DNA from: an uncultured Actinomycetota bacterium
GTDB taxonomy: Bacteria > Actinomycetota > Actinomycetes > JACCUZ01
Reading direction: 5' to 3'
DNA length: 64,000 nt
Assembly (NCBI GenBank): GCA_963751035.1
Contig: CAVVSW010000005.1
Span: 1,072,425-1,136,424, forward strand
This document shows positions 28,093 to 47,389 of this stretch, in pieces. The notes beneath the pieces are model-generated. The model was given only the letters and a program-made list of their open reading frames with translations. It made no database searches and was not told the origin of the DNA. Made by a program: the position numbers and the translations under genes. The number at the start of each line of letters is the position of its first letter. Within the stretch, counting starts at the first letter, position 1.

Positions 28093-30395
<2,303 letters not shown>

Positions 30396-30396
30396 G

Positions 30397-31164
30397 ATGG
30401 GACTGCTCGACGGCAAGCGCATCCTGATCACGGGCGTGCTGATGGACTCGTCCATCGCCTTCCACGTGGCGCGGATCGCGCAGCAGGAGGGCGCCGAGGT
30501 GGTGCTCACCTCCTTCGGGCGCACGATGCGGATCACGCAGACGATCGCCAAGCGGCTACCCAGCACCCCACCGGTGATCGAGCTCGACGCCAGCAACGCC
30601 GATGACTTCGCCGCTATGGCCGACCGGGTGCGCGAGCACGTCGACGGCCTCGACGGGGTGCTGCACTCGATCGGCTTCGCCCCGGAGGCCGCGCTCGGCG
30701 GCAACTTCCTCAACACGGAGTGGCCCGACGTGGCGACGGCGGTGCAGATCTCGGCGTACTCGTTGAAGGCGCTCGCGGTCGCCGCACAACCACTGATGCC
30801 CGCAGGCGGCGCGGTGGTCGGACTCACTTTCGATGCGACGGTCGCCTGGCCGAAGTACGACTGGATGGGTGTGGCCAAGGCGGCGTTCGAGTCGACCGCG
30901 CGCTACCTCGCGCGCGACCTGGGGCCGAAGGAGATCCGCGTCAACCTGGTGGCCGCCGGGCCGCTGAAGACGACCGCGGCCAAGTCGATCCCGGGGTTCG
31001 AGGAGTTCGAGGGTGTCTGGTCGACCCGCGCCCCGCTGACGTGGGACATCTCCGACTTCGAGCCGGCGGCGCGGGCGTGCGTGGCACTGATGTCGGACTG
31101 GTTCCCGCGCACCACCGGGGAGATCGTGCACGTCGACGGCGGCGTGCACGCCATGGGCGCCTGA
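30397..31164 (+). CDS. inhA: NADH-dependent enoyl-[ACP] reductase (InhA/FabI)
   Basis: The protein reads MGLLDGKRILITGVLMDSSIAFHVARIAQQEGAEVVLTSFGR…LDGVLHSIGFAP…YDWMGVAKAAFESTARYLARDLGPKEIRVNLVAAGPLKT. It has the InhA signature, with the catalytic Y and K in YxxMxxAK. It starts 2 nt after the fabG stop. Confidence 0.85.
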   Translation: MGLLDGKRILITGVLMDSSIAFHVARIAQQEGAEVVLTSFGRTMRITQTIAKRLPSTPPVIELDASNADDFAAMADRVREHVDGLDGVLHSIGFAPEAALGGNFLNTEWPDVATAVQISAYSLKALAVAAQPLMPAGGAVVGLTFDATVAWPKYDWMGVAKAAFESTARYLARDLGPKEIRVNLVAAGPLKTTAAKSIPGFEEFEGVWSTRAPLTWDISDFEPAARACVALMSDWFPRTTGEIVHVDGGVHAMGA

Positions 31165-31170
31165 CGGACC

Positions 31171-32892
31171 GTGCCTGCTCCGGCCGAGCCGTCTGCGCCG
31201 TCTGCGCTGGTCGAGCTGCGCGTCCTCGACGGGGCGAACCTCTACTTCCCCCGACCCGCGGTCAAGCTCACCCTCGACCTGACCCGGCTGCTGGCGATGG
31301 ACGAGGGCGCGGCTCGGACCGCTGCGGAGCAGGTCGGGATGCGCGGGGCTCGGCCGGGCGGCGCCGGCACCGGGCTGAGGCAGCGGTTCGCCGCGCGGTT
31401 GGTCGCCGGGCTGGTACGACGGGTGGCCGCCGAGTCGGGGACCACCCGCCTCGCCGTCCGTAGCCGCCCGACCGGTGACCTGCGCCGGATCGTGGTCGCC
31501 TACCCGTGGCGACGCCGCGGACGGGCCGAGGCGCTGGGACTGGCGGTGGCGGCGGTGCTCGACGCCGTGCCGGCGCCGGACCTGACGACCGTGCTGACCG
31601 ACGCGGTGGACTCGGTGCGGTCGGCCGAGCCGGGTGACGTCCCCACCACGCGGCGGCCGCGGGTCCCCCTGGTCGCCGTGACCGGCACCAACGGGAAGAC
31701 GACGACGTCGCGGATGGTGGCCCGGATGGGGCGGTGCGCCGGCCTGGTCGTCGGCTGGTCGTCCACGGACGGCGTCTACATCGACGGTGAGCTCGTCGAG
31801 CCCGGCGACTACTCCGGTCCGAGCGGCGCGGCAGCGGTCCTCGACGACCCACGGGTGCAGCTCGCGGTCACCGAGACGGCGCGGGGCGGCATCCTGCTGC
31901 GCGGCCTCGGTGTGACGCACACCGACGTCTCGGTGGTGACCAACGTCAGCGCCGACCACCTCGGCCTGCAGGGCGTGGACACGGTCGACCAGCTGGCCGA
32001 GGTCAAGGCCGTCATCACCCGGGTGATCCGACCCGACGGCTGGGTGGTGCTCAACGGCGACGACCCGAGGACGTTCGCGATGCGGCTGGCCGCGTCGGCA
32101 CGTGCGGTCGTGTTCTCGCGCGATCCGGACTCGCCCTCGATCCGCCAGGTGCTCAACGAGGGCGGCCGGGCCGTGACCGTGATCGACGGCGCGATCACGT
32201 TCCTGGGCCGGTCGCATCCCGATGCGCTGCTGCCGGTCGTCGACGTGCCGATGACGCTGGCCGGGCTGTCGCACTTCAACGTCGAGAACGCGCTCGCCGC
32301 GACCGCCGCGGGGCTGTCGGTCGGCTTGTCGCGCGAGGCGGTGATCGAGGGACTGCGGTCGTTCCGGCCCGGACCGGCGGACAACCCCGGGCGGATGAAC
32401 GTGTACGACGTGCGCGGCGTGACCGTCGTCCTCGACCTTGCGCACAACGAGGCCGGAGTGGCGGCCCTGGTCGAGGTGCTCCACGGGCTGCGCGCACCCG
32501 GCGGAACCGTCCGGCTGGTGCTGGGCAGCCCGGGTGACCGGACCGACGACATCATCCGCGGCATCGGTGAGCTCGGTGCCCGGGGCGCCGACCGGGTCGT
32601 CATCGGGCACAAGGAGTACTACCTGCGCGGCCGCCCGGCGGAGGAGCTGGCCGGGTTGCTGGTCGCGGGTGCGGCCGCGGTGGGTGTGCACGACGTACCG
32701 ATCCATCCGACCGAGCTCGCGGCCGTGCAGGCGCTGGTCGCCGAGTCGGCGCGTGGTGACGTGGTCGGCGTGATGTGCCACGCCGAACGGACGGCGATCG
32801 AGGAGTGGCTGGCGGCGGAGGGCGCCTCCATCGACGGCCCCGACGAGATCCGCGCCAAGGTCCTGGCCGCCCACCCCCGCTCCTCCACGTGA
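31171..32892 (+). CDS. cyanophycin-synthetase-like protein: CphA N-domain fused directly to a Mur-ligase (M) domain, with no ATP-grasp (G) domain
   Basis: The protein is 573 aa and intact. Residues 12-160 (ALVELRVLDGANLYFPRPAVKLTLDLTRL…RSRPTGDLRRIVVAYPW) align with the N-domain of the neighbouring 921-aa CphA (IIESRVYRGPNLWSYDPAVHLVVELGSL…RSTGIRGQYNVVYGF). Residues 165-573 form a complete Mur-ligase domain. Its motifs are the P-loop VAVTGTNGKTTTSRM, TETARGG, NVSADHLG, LNGDDP, LDLAHNEAG and LGSPGDRTDD, each matching CphA's FEVARGG / NIAPDHLG / LNADDE / VDYCHNAPG / VGAAGDRRDD. The GTG start lies 6 nt after the inhA stop. Confidence 0.75.
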   Translation: MPAPAEPSAPSALVELRVLDGANLYFPRPAVKLTLDLTRLLAMDEGAARTAAEQVGMRGARPGGAGTGLRQRFAARLVAGLVRRVAAESGTTRLAVRSRPTGDLRRIVVAYPWRRRGRAEALGLAVAAVLDAVPAPDLTTVLTDAVDSVRSAEPGDVPTTRRPRVPLVAVTGTNGKTTTSRMVARMGRCAGLVVGWSSTDGVYIDGELVEPGDYSGPSGAAAVLDDPRVQLAVTETARGGILLRGLGVTHTDVSVVTNVSADHLGLQGVDTVDQLAEVKAVITRVIRPDGWVVLNGDDPRTFAMRLAASARAVVFSRDPDSPSIRQVLNEGGRAVTVIDGAITFLGRSHPDALLPVVDVPMTLAGLSHFNVENALAATAAGLSVGLSREAVIEGLRSFRPGPADNPGRMNVYDVRGVTVVLDLAHNEAGVAALVEVLHGLRAPGGTVRLVLGSPGDRTDDIIRGIGELGARGADRVVIGHKEYYLRGRPAEELAGLLVAGAAAVGVHDVPIHPTELAAVQALVAESARGDVVGVMCHAERTAIEEWLAAEGASIDGPDEIRAKVLAAHPRSST

Positions 32893-32937
32893 TCATGCAG
32901 AAGCTGCGCTGATCGAGGGCAGCCAGCCCGGGCAGCG

Positions 32938-33369
32938 CTACATCGGCTCGAGGATGGCGACGGGAATCGTGCGGCCGGCCCGTCTGGCGTACTTCGCCAC
33001 CTCCGGTGCCTGAGCCAGCACCACGTCGTTCCACATCAGGTCACGCTGCTCGCCGACGAGCTCCCTCGGCCGAGCCCGTATCCGCGTGGACCGGATCTGC
33101 ACGTCCGCAACCTCCACCGCGCGCAGGTTGCGGAACCAGTCTGGGTCGCGCGGGGAACCCGAGCCGGTGCCCCAGACGAGATAGCCACCGTCCACATCGA
33201 GATAGCGGACGCACGTGGATCGGGGAATCCCGGTTCGTCGCCCGGGTGTCGTGATCATCAGGACGTGGACCTTCTTGCTGCCACTGGCCATCCGTCCGTC
33301 GAGAGTCCGGTACATCCACACTCCGATGCGGTTCCCGATCCTCGTCATCCGGCGCTTGTCGCTGCTCAT
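32938..33369 (-). CDS. deazaflavin(F420)-dependent nitroreductase family protein (DUF385 / Ddn-like)
   Basis: The protein is 143 aa and reads MSSDKRRMTRIGNRIGVWMYRTLDGRMASGSKKVHVLMITTPGRRTGIPRSTCVRYLDVDGGYLVWGTGSGSPRDPDWFRNLRA…. It has the characteristic split-barrel DUF385 motifs (TTGRKSG-like, DWYRNL). Confidence 0.65.
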   Translation of the reverse strand: MSSDKRRMTRIGNRIGVWMYRTLDGRMASGSKKVHVLMITTPGRRTGIPRSTCVRYLDVDGGYLVWGTGSGSPRDPDWFRNLRAVEVADVQIRSTRIRARPRELVGEQRDLMWNDVVLAQAPEVAKYARRAGRTIPVAILEPM

Positions 33370-33747
33370 CGGATGCCTCCTCTGACCTGACCGGGCCTAA
33401 GCCCACCACTCGAGGCAGGCATCGGCAAGGAGCCCGGACAGCACGGCGCCCCTCCGCCGGCCGGTGGCCGATGAAGGGGCGCTCGCTGATGGTGTGGGTC
33501 TGACTGGCTAGTCGTCCCAGGGACCGTAGTCGTCCATGTACAAGACGTTTCTCCTTCTCACAAGGCCGTCTACGACGCCGCACCGAATCCGATTCAAGCG
33601 TGAATCGCATCAACGTGGCGGAGACGGCCGTTTGGTGCTTCCTGTCCCACACGTACGTCGAGCGTCACACGCTCGGACGGGGAGGGCGCTGGAACCGGAG
33701 AGTCTCGCTCATCCGGGCAGCCGCTTGGTGGACTGCTGGGAACCAGC

Positions 33748-36513
33748 CTACCAGGCGTCCGCGACAACGCCCGATTCGGCTTGGTCATCACGAGGACGGG
33801 GGTGGGTGCCGGCCTGGGCCTGCGAGGACAGGATCTCCAGCTCCGCGAGTACCGGGCCGTGCTTGTCCACGCACAGGACGACCAGGTCGCCGGGGTTGGC
33901 GCGGGCCATCGAGTGGTGCACGGCGGGGATCTCGTCCAGCACCAGCTCGATCTGCTTGCAGCGGGCGCCCTCGGCCATCCGCGCCCGGCCGCCCTCGGCG
34001 ACGAGCTCGGCGGCGACGCCGCGCTTGCGCCCGCGCAGCACCGAGTCCTCCCGGATCACGAGGACGTCGAAGTGCTCGGCGGCGACGGCTCCCAGCTCGC
34101 GGATGTCGTCGTCGCGGCGGTCACCGGCGGCCCCGACCATGCCGATCCGCGAGGGCTTCGCCAGGTCGGTCAACGCGGCGTGGCTCTCGCTGAGCTGCTC
34201 GACGAAGTCACCCAGCATCCGCATCCCCGGAGCGTTGTGGCAGTAGTCGACGATCACGGTGGTCCCGCCGACCTCGATCTGGTTCAGGCGACCGGGGGAC
34301 AGGTAGTAGGACGTGGTGAACGTCCGCAGGCCCTGCCGGATGTCGTGCAGGTGTGCGCCCGCTGCGAAGGCGGCGGCCGCAGCAGCCAGGGAGTTCTGCA
34401 CGTTCATCTTCGCCCGGCCGCCGAACGTCGCCGGGAGCAGGTGGGTCCACGCGAGCTGCATCGACCGGCGGCCGTGCCGGATCACGATCATCTCGCCCAG
34501 CTCGCCGCGCTCGAGGACCACCGCACGCCCGCCGCGACGGCAGTGGTCGTCGATCATCTCGGCGATCTCACTCCCGGTGTCGCCCATCGAGAACCACACC
34601 ACCTGGCCGGAGCACCGGCGGCGCATGGCGCGGACCAGCTCGTCGTCGGCGTTGAGGACGGCGAAGCCATCCCGCGGCACGGCCTCGACGATCACCGCCT
34701 TGACCTGCGCCAGCTGTTCCAGCGTGTCGATGCCGCGCATCCCCAGGTGGTCGGGCGCGATGTTGAGGACCACCGCGACGTCATTGCGTTCGTAGCCCAG
34801 CCCCTCGCGCAGGATCCCGCCGCGCGCCACCTCGAACACCGCGAAGTCGACCCGGGGGTTCTGCAGCACCATCCGCGCCGACTTGGGTCCCGACGCATCG
34901 GCGCGGATCACGAGCCGCTCGTCGATGACGATGCCGTCGGTCGATGTCATCCCGACCTTGCGGCCCATGCCCTTGAAGACATGGGCGATCATCCGCGCCG
35001 TCGTCGTCTTCCCATTCGTCCCGGTCACCGCCACGATCGGGATGCGGCTGGGCGCACCGGGTGGGAAGAGCGAGTCGACGACCGGCTTCGCGACGTACTG
35101 CGCCTCTCCCTCGGTGGGGTGGGTGTGCATCCGGAACCCGGGCGCCGCGTTGACCTCGCAGATCGCGCCGCCGGCCTCGCGCACCGGCTCGGAGATGTCC
35201 GGTGCGATGAAGTCGATGCCGGCGACGTCGAGCCCCACCACGCGAGCCGCCTCCTCGGCGATCTCGACGTTGTCCGGATGTGCCTCGAGCGTCCGGTCGA
35301 TCGAGATTCCGCCGGTGGACATGTTGCCGGTGAGGGTCAGCTTGACCGTCGTACCGGCTGCTGGCACGTCGTCCAGGCCGAGTCCCTGCTCGCGGACGAG
35401 TTCTTCCGCCGCTTCGTCGAGCTTGATGCGCGTCAGGACCTTCTCGTGGCCGTAGCCGCGCCGCGGGTCGGCGTTGGTCTCCTCGACCAGCTGGCGCACC
35501 GTCAGCGACCCGTCGCCGATGACGTGCGCGGGAGTCCGCTCGGCCAGCGCCACCATCTTCCCGCCGATCACCAGCACGCGGTAGTCCTTGCCGGTTATGA
35601 ACGACTCGACCACGACCGAGCCGCGACGTGACTCCGACTCGGCGATCGGGAACGCCGTGGTCAGCTCCGCGTCGTCGGTGATGCCGAGCACGACGCCGCG
35701 GCCATGGTTGCCGTCCAGCGGCTTGCACACGACGGGGTAGCCGATGCGGTGCGCCGCGCGCAGGGCCTGGTCGAGCGTGCGGACCGCCTCGGCCCTCGGC
35801 ACCGGCAGGCCCGCGGCGGCGAGCAGCCGGGTGGTGAGCACCTTGTCGCCGGCGATGTCGACGGCCAGCGCGCTCGTCTTGGACGTCATGGTCGCCCGGA
35901 TGCGCTGCTGGTGGACACCCTGGCCGAGCTGGACGAGGGAGTATTCGTTGAGCCGCAGCCACGGGATGTCGCGCGACATCGCCTCGTCGACGATCGCCTG
36001 GGTCGAGGGGCCGAACGCCGTGCGCTCGGCCGCGATGTGGAAGGCCTCCAGCTCGGCGTCGAAGTCGAAGCCGGGCTCGGCCTGCACGAGGTGGTTGACC
36101 AGGCGTACGGCGAGGTGCCCGGCGCTCAGGCCGACGCGCTCCTCGACGAACCCGTAGACGACGTTGTACTGCCCGCGGATGCCGGTGCTGCGCGTCTTGC
36201 CGCGGCGCAGGTCGTGCCCGGCCTCCTGCTGGAGCTGCAGGGCCACGTGCTCGGCCACGTGGCCCAGCCAGGTGCCCTCCTTGAGCCGCTCGAGGAACCC
36301 GCCGCGCTTGCCGCGCGAGCAGGTGTGCCGGGCGAGATTGGGCAGCGCCTCCATCAGCCCGTCGACGAAGCCGGGGATGGTGTTGCTCGGGTGGTCCTCC
36401 AGCGAGCCGAGCTCGACGACGAGGTGCACAGCGGGGTCGTAGGACCACAGGTTGGGTCCGCGGTATACCCGGCTCTCGATGATGGTCAGGTCGGGGGCGG
36501 CCGGCGGCGTCAC
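33748..36513 (-). CDS. cphA: cyanophycin synthetase CphA (N, ATP-grasp G and Mur-ligase M domains; intact 921 aa)
   Basis: The N-domain reads LTIIESRVYRGPNLWSYDPAVHLVVELGSLEDHPSNTIPGFVDGL. The ATP-grasp domain reads KVLTTRLLAAAGLPVPRAE…GYPVVCKPLDGNHGRGVVLGI…VVVESFITGKDYRVLVIGGKMVALAER…TGNMSTGGISIDRT…ICEVNAAPGFRMHTHP. The M-domain reads IVAVTGTNGKTTTARM…FEVARGG…NIAPDHLG…LNADDE…VDYCHNAPG…GAAGDRRDDD. The GTG start overlaps the cphB stop (GTGA). Confidence 0.9.
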   Translation of the reverse strand: MTPPAAPDLTIIESRVYRGPNLWSYDPAVHLVVELGSLEDHPSNTIPGFVDGLMEALPNLARHTCSRGKRGGFLERLKEGTWLGHVAEHVALQLQQEAGHDLRRGKTRSTGIRGQYNVVYGFVEERVGLSAGHLAVRLVNHLVQAEPGFDFDAELEAFHIAAERTAFGPSTQAIVDEAMSRDIPWLRLNEYSLVQLGQGVHQQRIRATMTSKTSALAVDIAGDKVLTTRLLAAAGLPVPRAEAVRTLDQALRAAHRIGYPVVCKPLDGNHGRGVVLGITDDAELTTAFPIAESESRRGSVVVESFITGKDYRVLVIGGKMVALAERTPAHVIGDGSLTVRQLVEETNADPRRGYGHEKVLTRIKLDEAAEELVREQGLGLDDVPAAGTTVKLTLTGNMSTGGISIDRTLEAHPDNVEIAEEAARVVGLDVAGIDFIAPDISEPVREAGGAICEVNAAPGFRMHTHPTEGEAQYVAKPVVDSLFPPGAPSRIPIVAVTGTNGKTTTARMIAHVFKGMGRKVGMTSTDGIVIDERLVIRADASGPKSARMVLQNPRVDFAVFEVARGGILREGLGYERNDVAVVLNIAPDHLGMRGIDTLEQLAQVKAVIVEAVPRDGFAVLNADDELVRAMRRRCSGQVVWFSMGDTGSEIAEMIDDHCRRGGRAVVLERGELGEMIVIRHGRRSMQLAWTHLLPATFGGRAKMNVQNSLAAAAAAFAAGAHLHDIRQGLRTFTTSYYLSPGRLNQIEVGGTTVIVDYCHNAPGMRMLGDFVEQLSESHAALTDLAKPSRIGMVGAAGDRRDDDIRELGAVAAEHFDVLVIREDSVLRGRKRGVAAELVAEGGRARMAEGARCKQIELVLDEIPAVHHSMARANPGDLVVLCVDKHGPVLAELEILSSQAQAGTHPRPRDDQAESGVVADAW

Positions 36514-37382
36514 CGGTCGTCCTCCTCGGTCTGACGACGGAGCTGGTGAGCGAGGTGGGTCTCGGCGAAGGACAGCAGCCGGCGCTCGCTCAGGTCGAAG
36601 TGGGCACCCTGCGGCAGCGTGTGGACGACGGCGCCGGAGACCAGCATCGGTGCGCCGTGCTCGGCGAGGTGGGCGTCGCTGACCGCATGGGCCGCGTCGA
36701 CGATGAACACGCAGCCCCGGCCGATGACCTCGAGGAACCGGCCGCCCTTGATGACTGCGGCGGTGTCCTCGTCGATGCCGATCCCGACCAGGCTCGGCGA
36801 GCGGGCCGCGAGGGAGAGCAGCCGGCCGTACCGGCTGCGCTGGTCGAAGTGCTGGTCGACCACGACGCCGGGCAGCAGGCCTAGCCCGGCCGACGTCTGG
36901 GTCATGCCTTGGCGCGGGGTGTCGCCCTCGGACCCGAAGGCCACCATGTGCTCGCTGACGACGCTTGCGCCGGCCGACGTGCCGCCGACGACCGCGCCGC
37001 GCTCATAGGCTGCCCGGACCGCGTCGCCGAACCGCGTGCCCGTGATGACGGAGGACAGCTTGACCTGGTTGCCGCCGGTCATGAAGACCGCGTCCACGTC
37101 GGCGAGCTGGTCGGCGACCTGCGGGTCATCGGCCTCGGCCCGGTTCTCGGGGCGCAGCAGGACCGACTCGGCGGCACCGAGGTCGGCGAAGATCGCGTCG
37201 TAGGTGTCCAGGATCTCCGGCCCCAGCGACGAGGCGGTGGCCACGATGGCCACCCGCGAACCGTTGCCGCCGGCCAGCTCCAGGAACTTGCGGAGCACCG
37301 CCTTGCGCCCGATCCGGTCCTCGCCGCCCCCGATGACGAACAGGGTCCCGGCGGCAACCGGCGTGACGGAGCGATGTGGCAC
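36510..37382 (-). CDS. cphB: cyanophycinase CphB (peptidase S51)
   Basis: The protein reads …TLFVIGGGEDRIGRKAVLRKFLELAGG…VAIVATASSLGPEILDTYDAIFADLGA…AVFMTGGNQVKLSSV…GAVVGGTSAGASVVSEHMVAF (Ser nucleophile in GTSAGA)…VVDQHFDQRSRYGRLLSLAA…GIGIDEDTAAVI. The upstream part of the listed 423-aa ORF is Arg/Ala-rich junk. The likely start is GTG at 37382. It is immediately upstream of cphA, giving the cphBA operon order. Confidence 0.85.
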   Translation of the reverse strand: MPHRSVTPVAAGTLFVIGGGEDRIGRKAVLRKFLELAGGNGSRVAIVATASSLGPEILDTYDAIFADLGAAESVLLRPENRAEADDPQVADQLADVDAVFMTGGNQVKLSSVITGTRFGDAVRAAYERGAVVGGTSAGASVVSEHMVAFGSEGDTPRQGMTQTSAGLGLLPGVVVDQHFDQRSRYGRLLSLAARSPSLVGIGIDEDTAAVIKGGRFLEVIGRGCVFIVDAAHAVSDAHLAEHGAPMLVSGAVVHTLPQGAHFDLSERRLLSFAETHLAHQLRRQTEEDDR

Positions 37383-37450
37383 GGCCCTGAGCGTACGACG
37401 TCGGGCACGCTCCGCGTTGCTCGTAGCCACGGGTCGGGCATGATGCGGAC

Positions 37451-37937
37451 ATGCGGCTCTACCTGATGCGTCACGCCAAAGCAGCGTCGGAGGAGGGAGC
37501 GCCCGACCACGAGCGACCCCTGACCGAGCGGGGTGTTGCCGACGCTCGCACCATGGGCCGGTGGTTGCGCGACCACGGTGGCACGCCGGATGCCGTGTGG
37601 TGCTCCTCGGCGCTGCGGGCCCGCCAGACCTGGTCGGCGGTCGCGACGGAGCTGACATCGACCCCGGACGCGCCCGAACCGTCGTACCTGCGCTCGGTCT
37701 ACCAAGCCGGCCCCGGCGACCTGGTCGACCTGCTGCGCGATGTCGCACCCGAGCGTCGAGTCGGTGCTCATCCTCGGCCACAACCCGACTCTGGAGCAGG
37801 CGCTCGCCGGGCTGACGGGGGATCCGCGAGACCTCCCGACGGGCGCGATCGCCGCACTCGACGTGACCGGCTCGTGGTCAGCGCCCACCTCGTTCGAGCT
37901 GGCCGAGCTCGCCACCCCGAAGACGGAGCGGGCGTGA
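37451..37937 (+). pseudogene. sixA: phosphohistidine phosphatase SixA / histidine phosphatase family (frameshift near 37745)
   Basis: The N-terminal frame reads MRLYLMRHAKAASEEGAPDHERPLTERGVADARTMGRWL (RHG motif). The C-terminal frame reads …SVESVLILGHNPTLEQALAGLTGDPRDLPTGAIAALDV…. Confidence 0.6.
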
Positions 37938-38028: not shown

Positions 38029-41745
<3,717 letters not shown>

Positions 41746-41796: not shown

Positions 41797-43066
41797 CAGA
41801 CGGTGACCGCTGGCCCTTGCCGATGACCACGATCCCGCCGTCGGAGACGGTGAAGCCGCGCTCGCGGTCCTGGTCGAGGTCGACGCCGATCTGGCGCCCT
41901 CGGGGACCACGACGTTCTTGTCGAGGATCGCGTTGCGCACGACGGCGTGCCGGCCGACTGCACGTTGTCCATGAGCACGGAGCCGCGTGACGCTCGGCCC
42001 ACGAGTGGACCTGACGTTCGGGGACACGACCGAGTCGCTCGACGCAGCGAGCCGGAGACGACGACGCCGGGGGAGACCATCGAGTCGACCGCCCGGCCGC
42101 TCCGGCCGCTCCTCGTTGTGCACGAACTTCGCCGGCGGCATCGGGTCGTGCGACGTGTAGATGGGCCAGTCGTAGTTGTAGAGGTTGAAGATCGGGTGCA
42201 CCGAGATCAGGTCCATGTGGGCCTCGTAGAAGGAGTCGAGCGTCCCGACGTCGCGCCAGTAGCCGCGGTCGCGGTCCGTCGAGCCCGGGCACGTCGTTGT
42301 CGCTTGAAGTCGTAGACCTGGGCCGTCGCCCTTGTCGACGAGCATCGGGATGATGTCGCCGCCCATGTCGTGCTTGCTCGCCGGGTTCAGCGCGTCGCGG
42401 CGCAGGGCGTCGAGCAGCACGTCGGTCGTGAAGACGTAGTTGCCCATCGACGCGTAGACCTGCGTCGGGCGCGTCGGCGAGCCCTTCGGCGTCCTTCGGC
42501 TTCTCCCGGAACGCCGAGATCGTGCCGCCCGTCGCTCGGCCGGTCTCGATGACGCCGAACTGGTCGGCGAGCGTCAGATCGGCTGGCGGATCGCGGCGAC
42601 GGTCACGCCCGCGCCCGGACGTCGATGTGCTGGTGCGACCATCTGGCTGCGGGTCCATGCGGTAGATGTGGTCGGCGCCGAAGACGATGACGTAGCTCGG
42701 GCCGCTCGTCGTAGATGAGGTTGAGGCTCTGGTAGATCGCGTCGGCGGAGCCGGCGAACCACCGCGGGCCGAGCCGCTGCTGCGCCGGCACCGGGGTCAC
42801 GTAGTTGCCGAGCAGCGTCGACATGCGCCACGTCGCGGTGATGTGGCGGTCGAGGCTGTGGCTCTTGTACTGCGTCAGCACGACGATCTTGCAGGAAGCC
42901 CGCCGTTGACGAGGTTGGACAGCACGAAGTCGATGAGCCGGTAGATGCCGCCGAAGGGCACCGCCGGCTTGGCCCGGTCGGCGGTCAGCGGCATCAGCCG
43001 CTTGCCCTCGCCGCCGGCCAGCACGATCGCGAGCACCTTGCAGCCATGGCTGAACTTACCGCTCAC
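41797..43066 (-). pseudogene. glgC: glucose-1-phosphate adenylyltransferase GlgC (multiple frameshifts)
   Basis: The fragments read [54 protein letters not shown] / [58 protein letters not shown] / …[13 protein letters not shown]…[13 protein letters not shown] / …MGNYVFTTDVLLDALR…MGGDIIPMLV…RDRGYWRDVGTLDSFYEAHMDLISVHPIFNLYNYDWPIYT… / …AILDKNVVVPEGA…VSDGGIVVIGKGQR. Together they cover the whole of GlgC. It is divergent from glgA. Confidence 0.8.
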
Positions 43067-43112
43067 GGGGCGTCAGCCGAAACACCTGTCGCGACGCGCG
43101 AGTCATCGCGCC

Positions 43113-44310
43113 GTGCGCGTCGACCTGCTGACCCGTGAGTACCCGCCCGAGGTCTACGGCGGCGCCGGCGTGCACGTCGAGTACCTCGCCCGCGAGCTGC
43201 GCGCGCCTGGCCGACGTGCGGGTGCACTGCTTCGGCGCCCCGCGCGACGAGCCGGGCGTCACGGCGTACGACGAGCCCGCCGGGCTCGCCGGCGCCAACG
43301 CCGGCGCTGCGGACGCTGGGCGTCGACCTGGCGATGGCGGCCGGCTGCGCCGGCGCCGACGCTCGTGCACAGCCACACCTGGTACGCCAACATGGCCGGC
43401 CACGTCGCGAAGCTGCTGCACGGCATCCCGCACGTGATGACGACGCACAGCCTCGAGCCGCTACCGGCCGTGGAAGGCCGAGCAGCTCGGCGGCGGCTAC
43501 GCGCTGTCGTCGCTGGGCCGAGCGGACGGCGATCGAGGCGGCCGACGCGGTCATCTCGGTGTCGCGCCGGCATGCGCGACGACGTGCTTCGCTGCCTATC
43601 CCGGCGGTCGACCCCGACCGGGTCGACGTGGTCCACAACGGCATCGACACCGAGGAGTACTCGCCGGACCGCGGCACCGACGTGCTCGAGCGCCAGGGCA
43701 TCGACCCCGACCGGCCGAGCGTCGTCTTCGTCGGGCGCATCACCCGGCAGAAGGGGCTGCCGCTACCTGCTGCGCGCGGCCGCGCTCGCTCGACCCGGCG
43801 GTGCAGCTGGTGCTCTGCGCCGGCGCCCCGGACACCGACGGAGATCGGCGCGGAGGTCACCGGGCTCGTCGAGGAGCTGCGCGGCGACCGCGGCGGCGTC
43901 GTGTGGATCGCACGAGATGCTGCCCAAGCCGGACGTGATCCAGCTCCTGACCCACGCGACCGTGTTCGTCTGCCCGTCGATCTACGAGCCGATGGGCATC
44001 GTCAACCTCGAGGCGATGGCGTGCGAGGCGCCGGTGGTGGCCACCGCCACCGGCGGCATCCCGGAGGTCGTGGCCGACGGCGAGACCGGGCTGCTGGTGC
44101 CGATCGAGCAGGTCGCCGACGGCACCGGCACCCCGATCGACCCCGACCGGTTCGAGGCCGACCTCGCCGCGCGGCTCAACGAGCTGCTCGGCCGACCCGG
44201 CGCGCGCGCGAGCGATGGGCAAGGCGGGCCGGCGCCGCGCCGTCGAGCACTTCTCCTGGGCGGCGATCGCGGAGCGCACGCTGGAGGTCTACCGCTCGGC
44301 TGCTCTGAGC
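43113..44310 (+). pseudogene. glgA: glycogen synthase GlgA (GT4/GT5, actinobacterial type; multiple frameshifts)
   Basis: The fragments read VRVDLLTREYPPEVYGGAGVHVEYLARELR / LADVRVHCFGAPRDEPGVTAYDEP… / …HSHTWYANMAGHVAKLLHGIPHVMTTHSLEPL… / …AIEAADAVISVS…VDVVHNGIDTEEY…VVFVGRITRQKGLP…VFVCPSIYEPMGIVNLEAMACEAPVVATATGGIPEVVADGETGLLVP… / …MGKAGRRRAVEHFSWAAIAERTLEVYRSA. The 46-bp divergent intergenic region is shared with glgC. Confidence 0.75.
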
Positions 44311-45121
44311 CGCCGTCAGGCCGATCGGCCGGCGCGCTGCAGGCGGCTTCAGCGCGCGCCGGGCGCGCCGGTCTCGACGTCGCGCAGCGGCTCGCCGCTG
44401 CGCGGCGCCATCTCGCCCGCGGACACGCTGCGCCGCCGTCGGCTCCGCGGCCAGCTCGACGATCGCGCCGACCCGCGCGCAGCGGCGTCGCCAGCACGGG
44501 CGGCGCGCGCGGGGCGCCGTGGCCGGCAGCGAGGCTGCGTCCGGCGCCGCGGTGCGCCGGCCTGGGCGAGCGCCTCGGCCACCGCCGGGCCGCCACCGGG
44601 CGACGTCGAGGCGGACCAGCTCCTCGGTGGCCTCGCGCAGCGCTGCTGCAGCTCGCGTCGGCCTCCGCGAGACGGCAGCTCGGGAGCGCCGCGGCGTCAC
44701 CGCTGCGCCGATCCAGCGGACGGCGTCCAGGCGAGCCGCGGCTCTCGTCGGCACGCAGGCCGAGGGCGGTCGGCCCGGCGGCCAGCACCGCCTCGCCGGC
44801 CTCGACGGCCAGCTCGTTGAACGCCGCGCGGCCCGGGCAGGCCGGCGACGTCGCCGGGCGCCGGCAGCGCGAGCGCGCAGCCGCGTACGCCGAGGGCGCG
44901 CAGCCGGCCGAGCGCCAGCGTGACGGCGACGTCATCGGCCTCGCCGGGCAGGCCGCTGACACGCGTGGGCGGGTCGTCGGCGCCGGTGATGCGCGTCGGC
45001 GGCCTCGTCCGGGCTCGACGCGCCCGGGCAGGACGGCGTTGCCCCACGCGGCGAGCCGGGCGGCGCGCGGCAGCTCGAGCATCGGCCAGCGAGGCCTGAG
45101 GGCCGCGTCGGTGCTCGTAGG

Positions 45122-45942
45122 TTGCGCGGCGCATGTACTCGACTGCTCCTCGACTCTGCGCGGCGTCTCGGCTGGTGCGCGACGGCGCCCGGCTGCTGCG
45201 ACGACGTCGACTGGAGGTCGCCGAGGGCGAGCGCTGGGTGGTGCTCGGGCCGAACGGCGCGGGCAAGACGACGCTGCTCCAGCTCGCGTCGGCGCAACCT
45301 GCACCCCACGCCGCGGCGACGGCGTCGGATCCTCGGCGAGCACGCTGGGCGCGGTCGACGTCTTCGAGCTGCGGCCGCGCATCGGCCTGTCCAGCGCGGC
45401 GCTCGCCGACCGGCTGCCGGCGAGGGAGACGGTGCGCGACGTCGTCGTCACCGCGTCGTACGCCGTGTCGGGCCGGTGGCGGGAGAACTACGACGAGCTC
45501 GACAGCGCGCGGGCCGCGAGCTGCTCGACGCGATGGGCGTCGGGCCGCCTGGCCGAGCGGCGGTTCGGCACGCTGTCGCGAGGGCGAGCGCAAGCGGGTG
45601 CAGATCGCCCGCGCGCTGATGGCCGACCCCGAGCTGATGCTGCTCGACGAGCCCGCGGCCGGGCTCGACCTGGGCGGCCGGGAGGACCTCGTACGCCGGC
45701 TCGGCGAGCTCGGCGGCCGACCCGGCCGCGCCGGCGCTCGTCCTGGTGACCCACCACGTGGAGGAGATCCCGCCCGGCTTCACCCACGTCCTGCTGCTGC
45801 GCGGCGGGCCGCGTCGTCGCGCAGGGTCCGCTGCGAGACCACGCTGACCGGCGACGACCTGGCGCGAGACGTTCGGCCTCCCGCTGGAGCTGCGAGCGCC
45901 GCGGCGGCCGCGTGGTCAGCCCGCGCGACGCACGGCGCGTGA
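45122..45942 (+). pseudogene. ABC transporter ATP-binding protein (frameshifted; substrate unknown)
   Basis: It reads …LEVAEGERWVVLGPNGAGKTTLLQL (Walker A) / …VFELRPRIGLSSAALADRLPARETVRDVVVTASYAVSGRWRENYDELD… / …[37 protein letters not shown]…LVLVTHHVEEIP. These are the ABC motifs spread over at least three frames. The antisense strand shows the typical ABC shadow ORF. Confidence 0.6.
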
Positions 45943-45996
45943 TCCGCACTCGCCAGGCGCCGGACCGCCTAGGATCGGCCATACGGATCGAGGACG

Positions 45997-46445
45997 ATGG
46001 ACTGACTGGGCGACAACGCCTGGGCGCTCTGGCTCGGCCTCGCCGTCGTCCTCGGCTGCATCGAGGTGACCACGCTCGACCTCACGTTCCTCATGCTGGC
46101 CGCCGGCGCGCTGGCCGGCGCCGGCGCGGCCGGGCTCTGGGCGCCCCGTTCGCCGTGCCGGTGGTCGTCGCGGTCGTGCGTCTCGGTCGCGATGCTGGCC
46201 GTCGTCCGCCCGGTCGCGCTGCGGCACCTGCGCACGCCCGCGGCGACCCGCACCGGGACCGCCGCACTGGTCGGGCCGGAGGCCGTCGTGATCGAGCGCA
46301 TCGACGCCCACGGCGGCCAGGTCAAGCTCGCGGGCGAGGTGTGGTCCGCCCGATCGTACGACCCGCACGTGCGTCATCGAGCCGGGCCGCAACGTCGACG
46401 TCGTGCAGATCGACGGCGCGACCGCGGTCGTCTACGAATCGGAGA
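45997..46445 (+). pseudogene. NfeD-family membrane protein (in-frame TGA at codon 3 and one frameshift)
   Basis: The frame reads ATG GAC TGA CTG GGC GAC AAC GCC TGG, that is, M D * L G D N A W A L W L G L A V V L G C I E V T T L D L T F L M L A A G A L A G…. The NfeD family expects MDWLGDNAW. The C-terminal OB-fold reads …GQVKLAGEVWSARSYDPHV…IEPGRNVDVVQIDGATAVVYESE. It is followed by its SPFH partner. Confidence 0.6.
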
Positions 46446-46451
46446 TCGTGA

Positions 46452-47389
46452 ATGGAGTCACATCATCGCCCTCGGTCATCGCCGCGCGTCGCTCGTGCTC
46501 CTGGTCCTGGTGGCCCTGGCCAAGACCGTGCGGATCATCCCGCAGGCGCGGGCCGGCGTGGTCGAGCGGCTCGGCCGCTACAGCCGCACGCTCAACCCGG
46601 GCCTGACCGATCCTGGTGCCCGTTCATCGACCGGCTCCGCCCGCTGATCGACCTGCGCGAGCAGGTGGTGTCGTTCCCGCCGCAGCCGGTCATCACCGAG
46701 GACAACCTCGTCGGTCGGCATCGACACGGTCATCTACTTCCAGGTGACCGACCCCAAGGCGGCGACGTACGAGATCGCCAACTACATCCAGGGGGTCGAG
46801 CAGCTCACCGTCACGACGCTGCGCAACGTCGTCGGCGGCCTGAACCTCGAGGAGACGCTGACCTCGCGCGACCAGATCAACGCGGCGCTGCGCGGCGTGC
46901 TCGACGAGGCGACCGGCAAGTGGGGCATCCGCGTCAACCGCGTCGAGATCAAGGCCATCGACCCGCCCGCCTCCATCCAGGACTCGATGGAGAAGCAGAT
47001 GCGCGCCGAGCGCGAGAAGCGCGCCACGATCCTCACCGCCGAGGGCTTCAAGGCAGTCGCAGATCCTCACCGCCGAAGGCGCGCGGCAGTCGTCGATCCT
47101 CAAGGCCGAGGGCGACGCGCAGGCCGCGGTGCTGCGCGCCGACGGCGAGGCGCAGGCGATCCAGCAGGTCTTCGACGCCATCCACGCCGGCAACCCCGAC
47201 CAGAAGCTGCTGGCCTACCAGTACCTCCAGATGCTGCCGCAGATCGCCCAGGGCGACTCCAACAAGGTGTGGATCGTGCCGAGCGAGCTCGGCGAGGCGC
47301 TCAAGGGCATCGGCGGGATGCTCGGCGGCGGGCGGAGCGGCGAGCCGGGCGATGCCGTTCCGCCGAAGCCACCGATCCAGCCCGCCTGA
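46452..47389 (+). pseudogene. SPFH/band-7 (stomatin/prohibitin-like) protein (several frameshifts)
   Basis: The fragments read …LVLLVLVALAKTVRIIPQARAGVVERLGRYSRTLNPGL / …FIDRLRPLIDLREQVVSFPPQPVITEDNLV / …IYFQVTDPKAATYEIANYIQGVEQLTVTTLRNVVGGLNLEETLTSRDQINAALRGVLDEATGKWGIRVNRVEIKAIDPPASIQDSMEKQMRAEREKRATILTAEG / …AEGDAQAAVLRADGEAQAIQ…LLAYQYLQMLPQIAQGDSNKVWIVPSELGE…. Confidence 0.75.

Follow-up and report, generated by a model that had tools for sequence, protein, structure and literature searches.

What does an uncultured, Sporichthyaceae-like actinobacterium do with a complete pair of genes for making and degrading the storage polymer cyanophycin, and does a third, related gene nearby belong to the same pathway? 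The question is raised by a stretch of 64,000 nucleotides (nt) of contig CAVVSW010000005.1 (GenBank assembly GCA_963751035.1, positions 1,072,425 to 1,136,424), the whole of which we refer to as the window. A first, sequence-only reading of the window had singled out its cphB–cphA pair as an operon of a cyanophycinase and a cyanophycin synthetase, and all the testable sequence features of CphA1 and of a cyanophycinase proved to be present. We conclude that the locus is very probably a native and functional cyanophycin cycle module of this organism, and we describe beside it a paralogue of CphA, here named MurL, which that reading had missed. The three genes are:

33748..36513, minus strand: cphA, cyanophycin synthetase 1, 921 amino acids (aa), with a GTG start that is the first start codon of its frame

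36510..37382, minus strand: cphB, cyanophycinase, 290 aa from the GTG at 37382

31171..32892, plus strand: MurL, a CphA paralogue without a G domain, 573 aa, with a degenerate N domain and an M domain but no ATP-grasp

Against the NCBIfam equivalog TIGR02068, whose cutoff is 850, the window CphA scores 1160.8 bits and spans model positions 2-859 of 862; against NF010623 (cutoff 877) it scores 1094 bits. It aligns collinearly over residues 11-880 with the Synechocystis CphA1 structure 7LG5 (826 bits, E 2.8e-247, ~47% identity), scores 770 bits against the Trichodesmium CphA1 structure, and runs in one frame against the CphA of locus L083 with 75% identity over residues 1-906. Its Pfam domains follow one another as PF18921 (Cyanophycin_syn, 31-144), ATP-grasp (221-330), Mur_ligase_M (496-714), and Mur_ligase_C (741-881), which is the N-G-M three-domain order of CphA1. 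The TIGR02068 score and the 7LG5 alignment thus bear out the earlier description of a full-length, 921-residue CphA with intact N, ATP-grasp, and Mur-ligase motifs. The domains lie as follows:

36019..36513, minus strand: N domain (~residues 1-165), PF18921 at 134 bits, with the C-x19-HxxEH motif (TCS...GHVAEH)

35044..36018, minus strand: G domain (~residues 166-490), ATP-grasp, with Pfam RimK, CPSase_L_D2, and ATP-grasp matches

33748..35043, minus strand: M domain (~residues 491-921, including the stop), Mur-ligase-like, with Mur_ligase_M and Mur_ligase_C matches

We took the definition of the N-domain motif from one study (PMC9262961) and the roles of the G- and M-domain residues from another (PMC9427784). 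Read from the translation, the N-domain motif is complete as C65-x19-H85-V-A-E88-H89, and C65, H85, E88, and H89 are invariant across 28 actinobacterial CphAs. In CphA1 enzymes this motif marks a cryptic endo-cyanophycinase that generates primers and so renders the synthetase primer-independent, a subclass that comprises 83% of CphA1s (PMC9262961). The G domain is identical to 7LG5 at KPLDGNHGRG and EVNAAPGFRMH, keeps NMSTGG, and places the equivalent of R309, which is essential, in DYRVLV; the position of E215, also a catalytic or substrate residue, is occupied by D, a conservative change (PMC9427784). The ATP/Mg site of the M domain is complete, with the P-loop GTNGKTT (the K499/T500 equivalents), T522, E558, R731, and H748 (roles from PMC9427784), and among 26 CphA sequences K499, T500, E558, R731, and H748 each reach at least 90% conservation.

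The companion gene is equally assignable. CphB scores 221.9 bits against the equivalog TIGR02069 (cutoff 126.6; model positions 1-248 of 250), matches Pfam Peptidase_S51, and aligns with the cyanophycinase structures 7UQV (179 bits, E 1.7e-51) and 3EN0 (166 bits, E 1.7e-47). Its motifs GTSAGA, VVDQHFDQRSRYGRLL, and GIGIDEDTA fall on the same motifs of both structures, which places the S51 serine nucleophile where the sequence-only reading had seen it, and its R-x-R-x-x-R aligns with that of solved cyanophycinases. We take the catalytic residues to be Ser132 (in GTSAGA), His174 (in DQHF), and Glu201 (in GIDEDT), and the pocket residues to be R178, R180, and R183. The GTG previously proposed as the start is present at 37382 and the gene positions hold, with an alternative in-frame GTG at 37430 (306 aa) that leaves the start uncertain by 16 codons; the mechanical open reading frame (ORF) that reaches 37781 we discarded as an artefact of high guanine-cytosine (GC) content. 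By inspection, the catalytic domain begins ~12 residues after either start and no hydrophobic stretch precedes it. With no obvious secretion signal, CphB is putatively of the intracellular type, unlike CphE.

The two genes are arranged as a unit. The cphB stop and the cphA start overlap by four nucleotides, GTGA (36513..36510), as had been read directly from the sequence, and a Shine-Dalgarno-like element lies just upstream:

36521..36527, minus strand: GAGGAGG, inside the 3′-terminal part of cphB and separated by 7 nt from the cphA GTG

This overlap, together with the upstream GAGGAGG, suggests that cphB and cphA are translationally coupled, and the two are probably co-transcribed. Spurious other-frame ORFs of 555, 616, and 772 aa overlap the same locus. 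Since DNA of ~70% GC breeds long spurious ORFs, the length of an ORF is no proof of a gene here, and the identity of cphA and cphB rests instead on their profile scores.

The next question is whether the pair is native. We collected CphA relatives with one genome per species, 480 loci in all, and took synteny counts from the best 80 of these. The best 80 are 72-95% identical to the window CphA, and all but one carry an Actinomycetota label. At the top stands a Sporichthyaceae metagenome-assembled genome (MAG) with 95% identity, and the others include many soil MAGs, Nocardioidaceae, Kribbellaceae, and Jiangellales; many of the closest relatives bear names of the form 'MFD…bin…' and resemble the output of a single large metagenome project. 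Cultured carriers occur in Knoellia, Terrabacter, Intrasporangium, Phycicoccus, Pedococcus, Oryzobacter, and Humibacillus, and the window CphA is 72-76% identical to the CphA of cultured Intrasporangiaceae/Dermatophilaceae. Across several actinobacterial orders, 79 of the 80 loci have cphB immediately ahead of cphA in the same orientation; the pair is commonly flanked by a divergent sixA on one side and by fabG and fabI on the far side, and the fabG/fabI/sixA/serB backbone is found wherever the flanks reach. We take the conserved genes around the cluster, with fabG and fabI on one side and the Rv1486c-like, ABC, NfeD, and Band7 genes on the other, to be the equivalent of fabG1, inhA, hemZ, Rv1486c, Rv1487, and Rv1488 of Mycobacterium tuberculosis, which presumably lacks cphBA and the paralogue.

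The composition of the pair agrees: cphA and cphB have a GC of 0.70-0.72 and a GC at third codon positions (GC3) of 0.87, in keeping with the adjoining genes. Native-like composition and a conserved position across orders argue for vertical inheritance over recent transfer, as the sequence-only reading had supposed from composition, and a native, vertically inherited cphBA is well supported by these comparisons. The cluster is old in Actinomycetota. The one locus among the 80 with another label, L016 (JAJAYQ010000006.1), comes from a MAG labelled Spirochaetaceae bacterium; it shows the actinobacterial order of sixA, cphB, cphA, paralogue, and fabI with a CphA of 83% identity, and its contig is probably mis-binned.

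Nor is the presence of cyanophycin genes in this phylum new. Among complete genomes, 35 from Actinomycetota encode CphA1, all of them together with a cyanophycinase and IadA or IaaA (Sharon et al., 2023, PMC10206079). Of 69 Tetrasphaera-related genomes, 48 carry cphA and cphB, and cyanophycin was proposed as a storage compound on that basis (Singleton et al., 2022, PMC9123174). The Tetrasphaera 'Group 2' cluster has cphB immediately before cphA, and glgA, glgC, and serB in the vicinity (Farmer et al., 2023, PMC10687191), and Tetrasphaera MAGs in laboratory reactors express cphA and cphB at levels comparable to glgC and ppk1 (PMC10687191). The same account mentions 'two copies of cphA', of which the longer is more expressed (PMC10687191). 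The sequence-only reading had described cyanophycin metabolism as studied mainly in cyanobacteria and in a few proteobacteria and clostridia; the rarity that this implied was overstated, for cphA and cphB are tabulated in all three of these studies (PMC10206079, PMC9123174, PMC10687191). The window cphBA is one more lineage in a known distribution, neither novel nor surprising.

From this gene content we infer enzymatic activity, polymer accumulation, and regulation, with a division of labour as follows. The G domain of CphA, of the ATP-grasp type, would extend the poly-aspartate backbone, and the Mur-ligase-like M domain would join an arginine to each aspartate side chain. The N domain would contribute a metallopeptidase-like C-x19-HxxEH site, which in Synechocystis CphA1 cuts the polymer into primers; with this motif complete, we expect the window enzyme to need no primer. 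CphB, a putatively intracellular S51 serine peptidase, would then release beta-Asp-Arg dipeptides, and the dipeptidase for the last step would be encoded elsewhere. A peptidase M28 gene in the window was considered as that dipeptidase partner and dropped: none of the 80 related loci has it close to cphBA, which marks it as an insertion specific to this lineage.

The third gene converges on cphA, with a stop-to-stop distance of 855 base pairs (bp). MurL matches TIGR02068 only partially, at 386 bits (cutoff 850) and over model positions 472-854 alone. In its M part it shares 38-39% identity with the M domain of the window CphA, no Pfam match to an ATP-grasp domain was obtained, and the G domain is skipped when the protein is aligned to the CphA1 fold. 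It scores 250 bits against CphA1 structures and at most 61 bits against any Mur ligase; Mur-ligase profiles and solved MurE chains cover it only from ~residue 135, over the central and C-terminal parts, and all its Mur equivalog scores are far under their cutoffs. The first ~160 residues have no Pfam match. However diverged, this region is related to the CphA N domain: a profile of 28 orthologue N-termini aligns collinearly with the CphA N-domain profile over 142 columns (hhalign probability 86.6%, E 4.5e-6). Of the C-x19-HxxEH motif, the Cys and the His/Glu/His are all missing from the paralogue, and a 9-residue deletion falls there.

An AlphaFold2 model built with 70 homologues (pLDDT 91.9, pTM 0.89) leads to the same assignment. 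Its best fold matches are CphA1 chains, with a query-normalised TM-score (TMq) of 0.78-0.80 and a span over both N and M domains, compared with 0.55 for MurE. As modelled, then, the paralogue is a CphA1 with the G domain removed, an N + M fold. Other assignments were rejected: CphA1, because there is no G domain and no C-x19-HxxEH and because the TIGR02068 score is under the cutoff; CphA2, because the M domain is full (core and lid) and the G domain absent; and a MurC-F ligase, because the N-terminus is CphA-like and CphA1 is best in both bits and TMq. Source databases label the gene 'cyanophycin synthetase' (JGI) or 'Mur ligase family protein' (NCBI). Without a G domain and with a sub-cutoff TIGR02068 score, the first of these labels is not justified.

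CphA and MurL are, by these comparisons, old and separate families, with 32-42% identity between them and no sequence whose nearest neighbour lies across the divide. At 74 M-domain positions the two are identical and at least 90% conserved, and these include all the ATP and Mg ligands. Elsewhere each family has its own motifs (CphA first, paralogue second): RE-DxxxRGR/KExxYLRGR, TFTTS/FRPx, GPxSA/GPxGA, and ILREGL/ILLRGL, differences that likely face the substrates. Two further proteins, P0136 (972 aa) and P0267 (1109 aa), join a CphA-type M domain to long extra regions of unknown nature. In the literature we found, from which most subscription journals were outside coverage, a G-less CphA is touched on only by the 'shorter copy' remark for Tetrasphaera (PMC10687191), and we claim no priority.

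Does the paralogue belong with cphA? It lies convergent and downstream of cphA in 67 of the 80 loci, 66-6718 bp away (median 910 bp), and in 11 of the 13 loci without it the sequence downstream runs for less than 1.7 kb; in L015, the paralogue (P0013) is probably farther away on the cphA contig. In 65 of the 67, however, fabI stands beyond the paralogue on the same strand, and backbone synteny could explain the whole pattern. We therefore turned to distant homologues, 37-48% identical, from an exhaustive representative search. Their surrounding genes are all different and fabG/fabI are absent. These loci are:

L084/85: paralogue convergent on cphA-cphB, 13 bp apart

L086: paralogue abutting cphA

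L087: cphB, hypothetical gene, cphA, and paralogue, co-directional

L088: paralogue convergent on cphA-cphB, with an M20 peptidase beside

L089: amidohydrolase-S51 fusion, cphA (fragmented), and paralogue, co-directional

L090 (5283-6995): 570-aa paralogue homologue, aligned over the M domain only; no cphA within 5-8 kb

L091 (675-7246; ENA ERZ27257111 k141_292679): IadA-like amidohydrolase, cphB, cphA (935 aa), and paralogue (575 aa), co-directional

L092: sequence too short for cphA adjacency

Six of the seven informative contexts keep the paralogue and cphA adjacent. In L091 the two genes overlap by 4 nt, and the block reads as a complete operon for cyanophycin synthesis and degradation plus the extra gene. 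The fused product of L089 (1032-2588), 518 aa with IadA-like amidohydrolase and peptidase S51 domains, could be a natural fusion that unites the two degradation steps; otherwise it reflects faulty gene calling on a contig prone to errors.

The most likely role we see for the paralogue is that of a stand-alone side-chain ligase acting on the polymer, within the same pathway. When a cyanophycin analogue is placed in CphA1 by superposition, it comes to lie between N domain and M core (PMC9427784), which makes a free-standing N + M protein a plausible polymer-directed side-chain ligase. To the full proposal, namely that MurL is a third cyanophycin enzyme, an ATP-dependent ligase that acts on its own through a CphA1-like N + M polymer-binding module, we would give an even chance. 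If it holds, the paralogue may arginylate bare aspartate, attach another amino acid, or assemble with CphA1.

Several observations weigh against such a role. In the window the paralogue runs in the direction of fabG and fabI, only 7 bp behind the latter, and faces cphA; the shorter cphA copy of Tetrasphaera is less expressed than cphA (PMC10687191); and L090 is either a counter-example or a diverged subfamily with another role. There is an alternative that we consider unlikely, in which the paralogue is unrelated to cyanophycin, a Mur-type ligase of the fabG-fabI operon with an envelope or cofactor function that stays near cphA through conservation of the backbone. The tight spacing behind fabI on the same strand and the 65 of 67 loci that retain fabI would fit it, as would L090 with no neighbouring cphA, and one database protein (P0115, 825 aa) joins an enoyl-ACP reductase domain (fabI) to the paralogue. 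Yet the paralogue abuts cphA in L084/85, L086, L087, L088, L089, and L091, in foreign surroundings without fabG/fabI, is co-directional with it in the third, fifth, and last of these, and overlaps it in L091, and its two domains are precisely those that flank the modelled cyanophycin analogue in CphA1 (PMC9427784).

A second alternative concerns the product. Expressed in heterologous hosts, CphA1 enzymes are known to build in lysine, ornithine, and glutamate (PMC8050183), and the window CphA might make a polymer other than Asp-Arg, rich in one of these, perhaps with the paralogue adding a second side chain: the paralogue keeps the catalytic core, but its family-specific positions close to the presumed substrate sites depart from those of CphA1. 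We regard this as improbable. The window CphA shares ~47% identity with the Asp/Arg-specific enzyme of Synechocystis and has lost none of the conserved M-domain positions, and without a residue-level specificity code for CphA1 the motif differences are not readable as a change of substrate.

The reading of cphBA as a working cyanophycin cycle has its own difficulties. Cyanophycin accumulation in Actinomycetota is, in the literature we found, proposed with no chemical demonstration, and in a full-scale plant the expression of cphA by Ca. Phosphoribacter was very low and the polymer's importance in situ was called unknown (PMC12455942). Consensus scans of 32800..37600 for promoters and terminators returned nothing, an inspection by eye of the 68-bp cphB-sixA intergenic region found no convincing GlnR-type nitrogen box, and neither IadA (amidohydrolase) nor IaaA (asparaginase_2) is among the plausible ORFs of the window. 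That cphBA is intact yet of marginal physiological use, a conserved relic in a lineage that stores little or no polymer, would suit the very low expression in Phosphoribacter, but it is highly improbable against identities of 72-95% over dozens of species and several orders with invariant catalytic residues, a pattern that speaks for purifying selection, and against the laboratory-reactor expression on a par with glgC and ppk1 (PMC10687191).

The surroundings of the cluster bear on how its integrity should be read. Beyond the three genes above, the relevant features are:

29694..31164: fabG-fabI, conserved actinobacterial backbone on the paralogue side of the cluster

32938..33369: small F420H2-dependent reductase-like gene between the paralogue and cphA

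38102..39031, plus strand: peptidase M28, between sixA and a capA-like gene

40.5-41.7 kb: serB, frameshifted

~41.7-42.9 kb: glgC, frameshifted

from 42.9 kb: glgA

44765..47305: Rv1486c-like, ABC, NfeD, and Band7 genes, conserved backbone on the far side of the cluster

The genes moaA, fabG, fabI, the paralogue, cphA, and cphB are each single-frame when aligned to relatives, and the contrast first drawn between a frame-intact cphBA and frameshifted neighbours is real. Against the intact L083 genes, serB is split into five frame segments, and the ABC ATPase, Band7, SURF1, and Rv1486c-like genes are split as well; Pfam matches show the capA-like gene and glgC in pieces. We nevertheless rejected intactness amid broken neighbours as a sign of selection. 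The frameshifts are dense at ~38-47 kb (to ~47400), with SURF1 at ~21.6-22.4 kb, and the intervening ~22.4-37.4 kb is clean; the genes broken in the window have intact counterparts in relatives. Breaks that cluster in this way, with intact copies elsewhere, fit local assembly error better than pseudogenisation. GC is uniformly high across the window (0.66-0.78), with its peak at 44001..46000 (0.78), where several long overlapping ORFs occur, and the 934-aa ORF at 42945..45749 has a glycosyltransferase-domain match only in its first ~390 residues. Gene content distal to glgA at 44001..46000 is probably blurred by frameshifts. Rfam and tRNA scans of the whole window gave no matches.

What, then, does the locus contribute? 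The cphBA pair adds Sporichthyaceae-like soil or sediment actinobacteria to the known distribution of the pathway, which is useful for annotation. Cyanophycin has repeatedly been proposed as the missing storage compound of Tetrasphaera/Phosphoribacter, the polyphosphate-accumulating bacteria of wastewater, and cultured relatives with the same cluster could settle the question of actinobacterial cyanophycin. Mislabelling the paralogue as 'cyanophycin synthetase' or as a second cphA inflates gene counts in surveys. Should the paralogue be a third enzyme of the pathway, what are now called 'cphBA' clusters would in many cases, in Actinomycetota as in other phyla, be three- or four-gene systems (iadA-like, cphB, cphA, and paralogue). 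If it modifies or completes the polymer, it could be relevant to the engineered production of cyanophycin.

Set beside known systems, the locus is closest in arrangement to the 'Group 2' cluster of Tetrasphaera and other Dermatophilaceae, with which it shares the cphB-cphA order, the glgA/glgC/serB neighbours, and a second, shorter cphA-like gene. It differs in lineage, its nearest relative being the Sporichthyaceae MAG, and the published 'Group 2' account counts the short gene as a cphA copy, with the missing ATP-grasp unmentioned. Compared with the CphA1 of Synechocystis sp. UTEX2470 (7LG5, 7LGJ, 7LGQ) and Trichodesmium (7WAC-7WAF), the window CphA is alike in architecture, catalytic residues, and C-x19-HxxEH; relative to the Synechocystis enzyme, it has ~11 extra residues inserted into the M lid, ends in a variable C-terminal tail of ~40 residues, carries D in place of E215, and comes from an actinobacterial host. 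The window CphB shares fold family and motifs with the solved S51 cyanophycinases (Synechocystis 3EN0; 7UQV, 7UQW), from which its sequence has moderately diverged. With MurE, MurF, and other Mur ligases, the paralogue has in common the central ATPase and C-terminal domains and the P-loop, joined to an N-terminus of a diverged CphA type. CphA2 (7TA5, 8FXH), whose chains the window CphA matches solely over residues 149-582, keeps N and G domains and a truncated M domain. Both CphA2 and the paralogue are thus reduced CphA derivatives found alongside CphA1, but reduced in opposite ways: in the paralogue the N and M domains are kept and it is the G domain that is absent.

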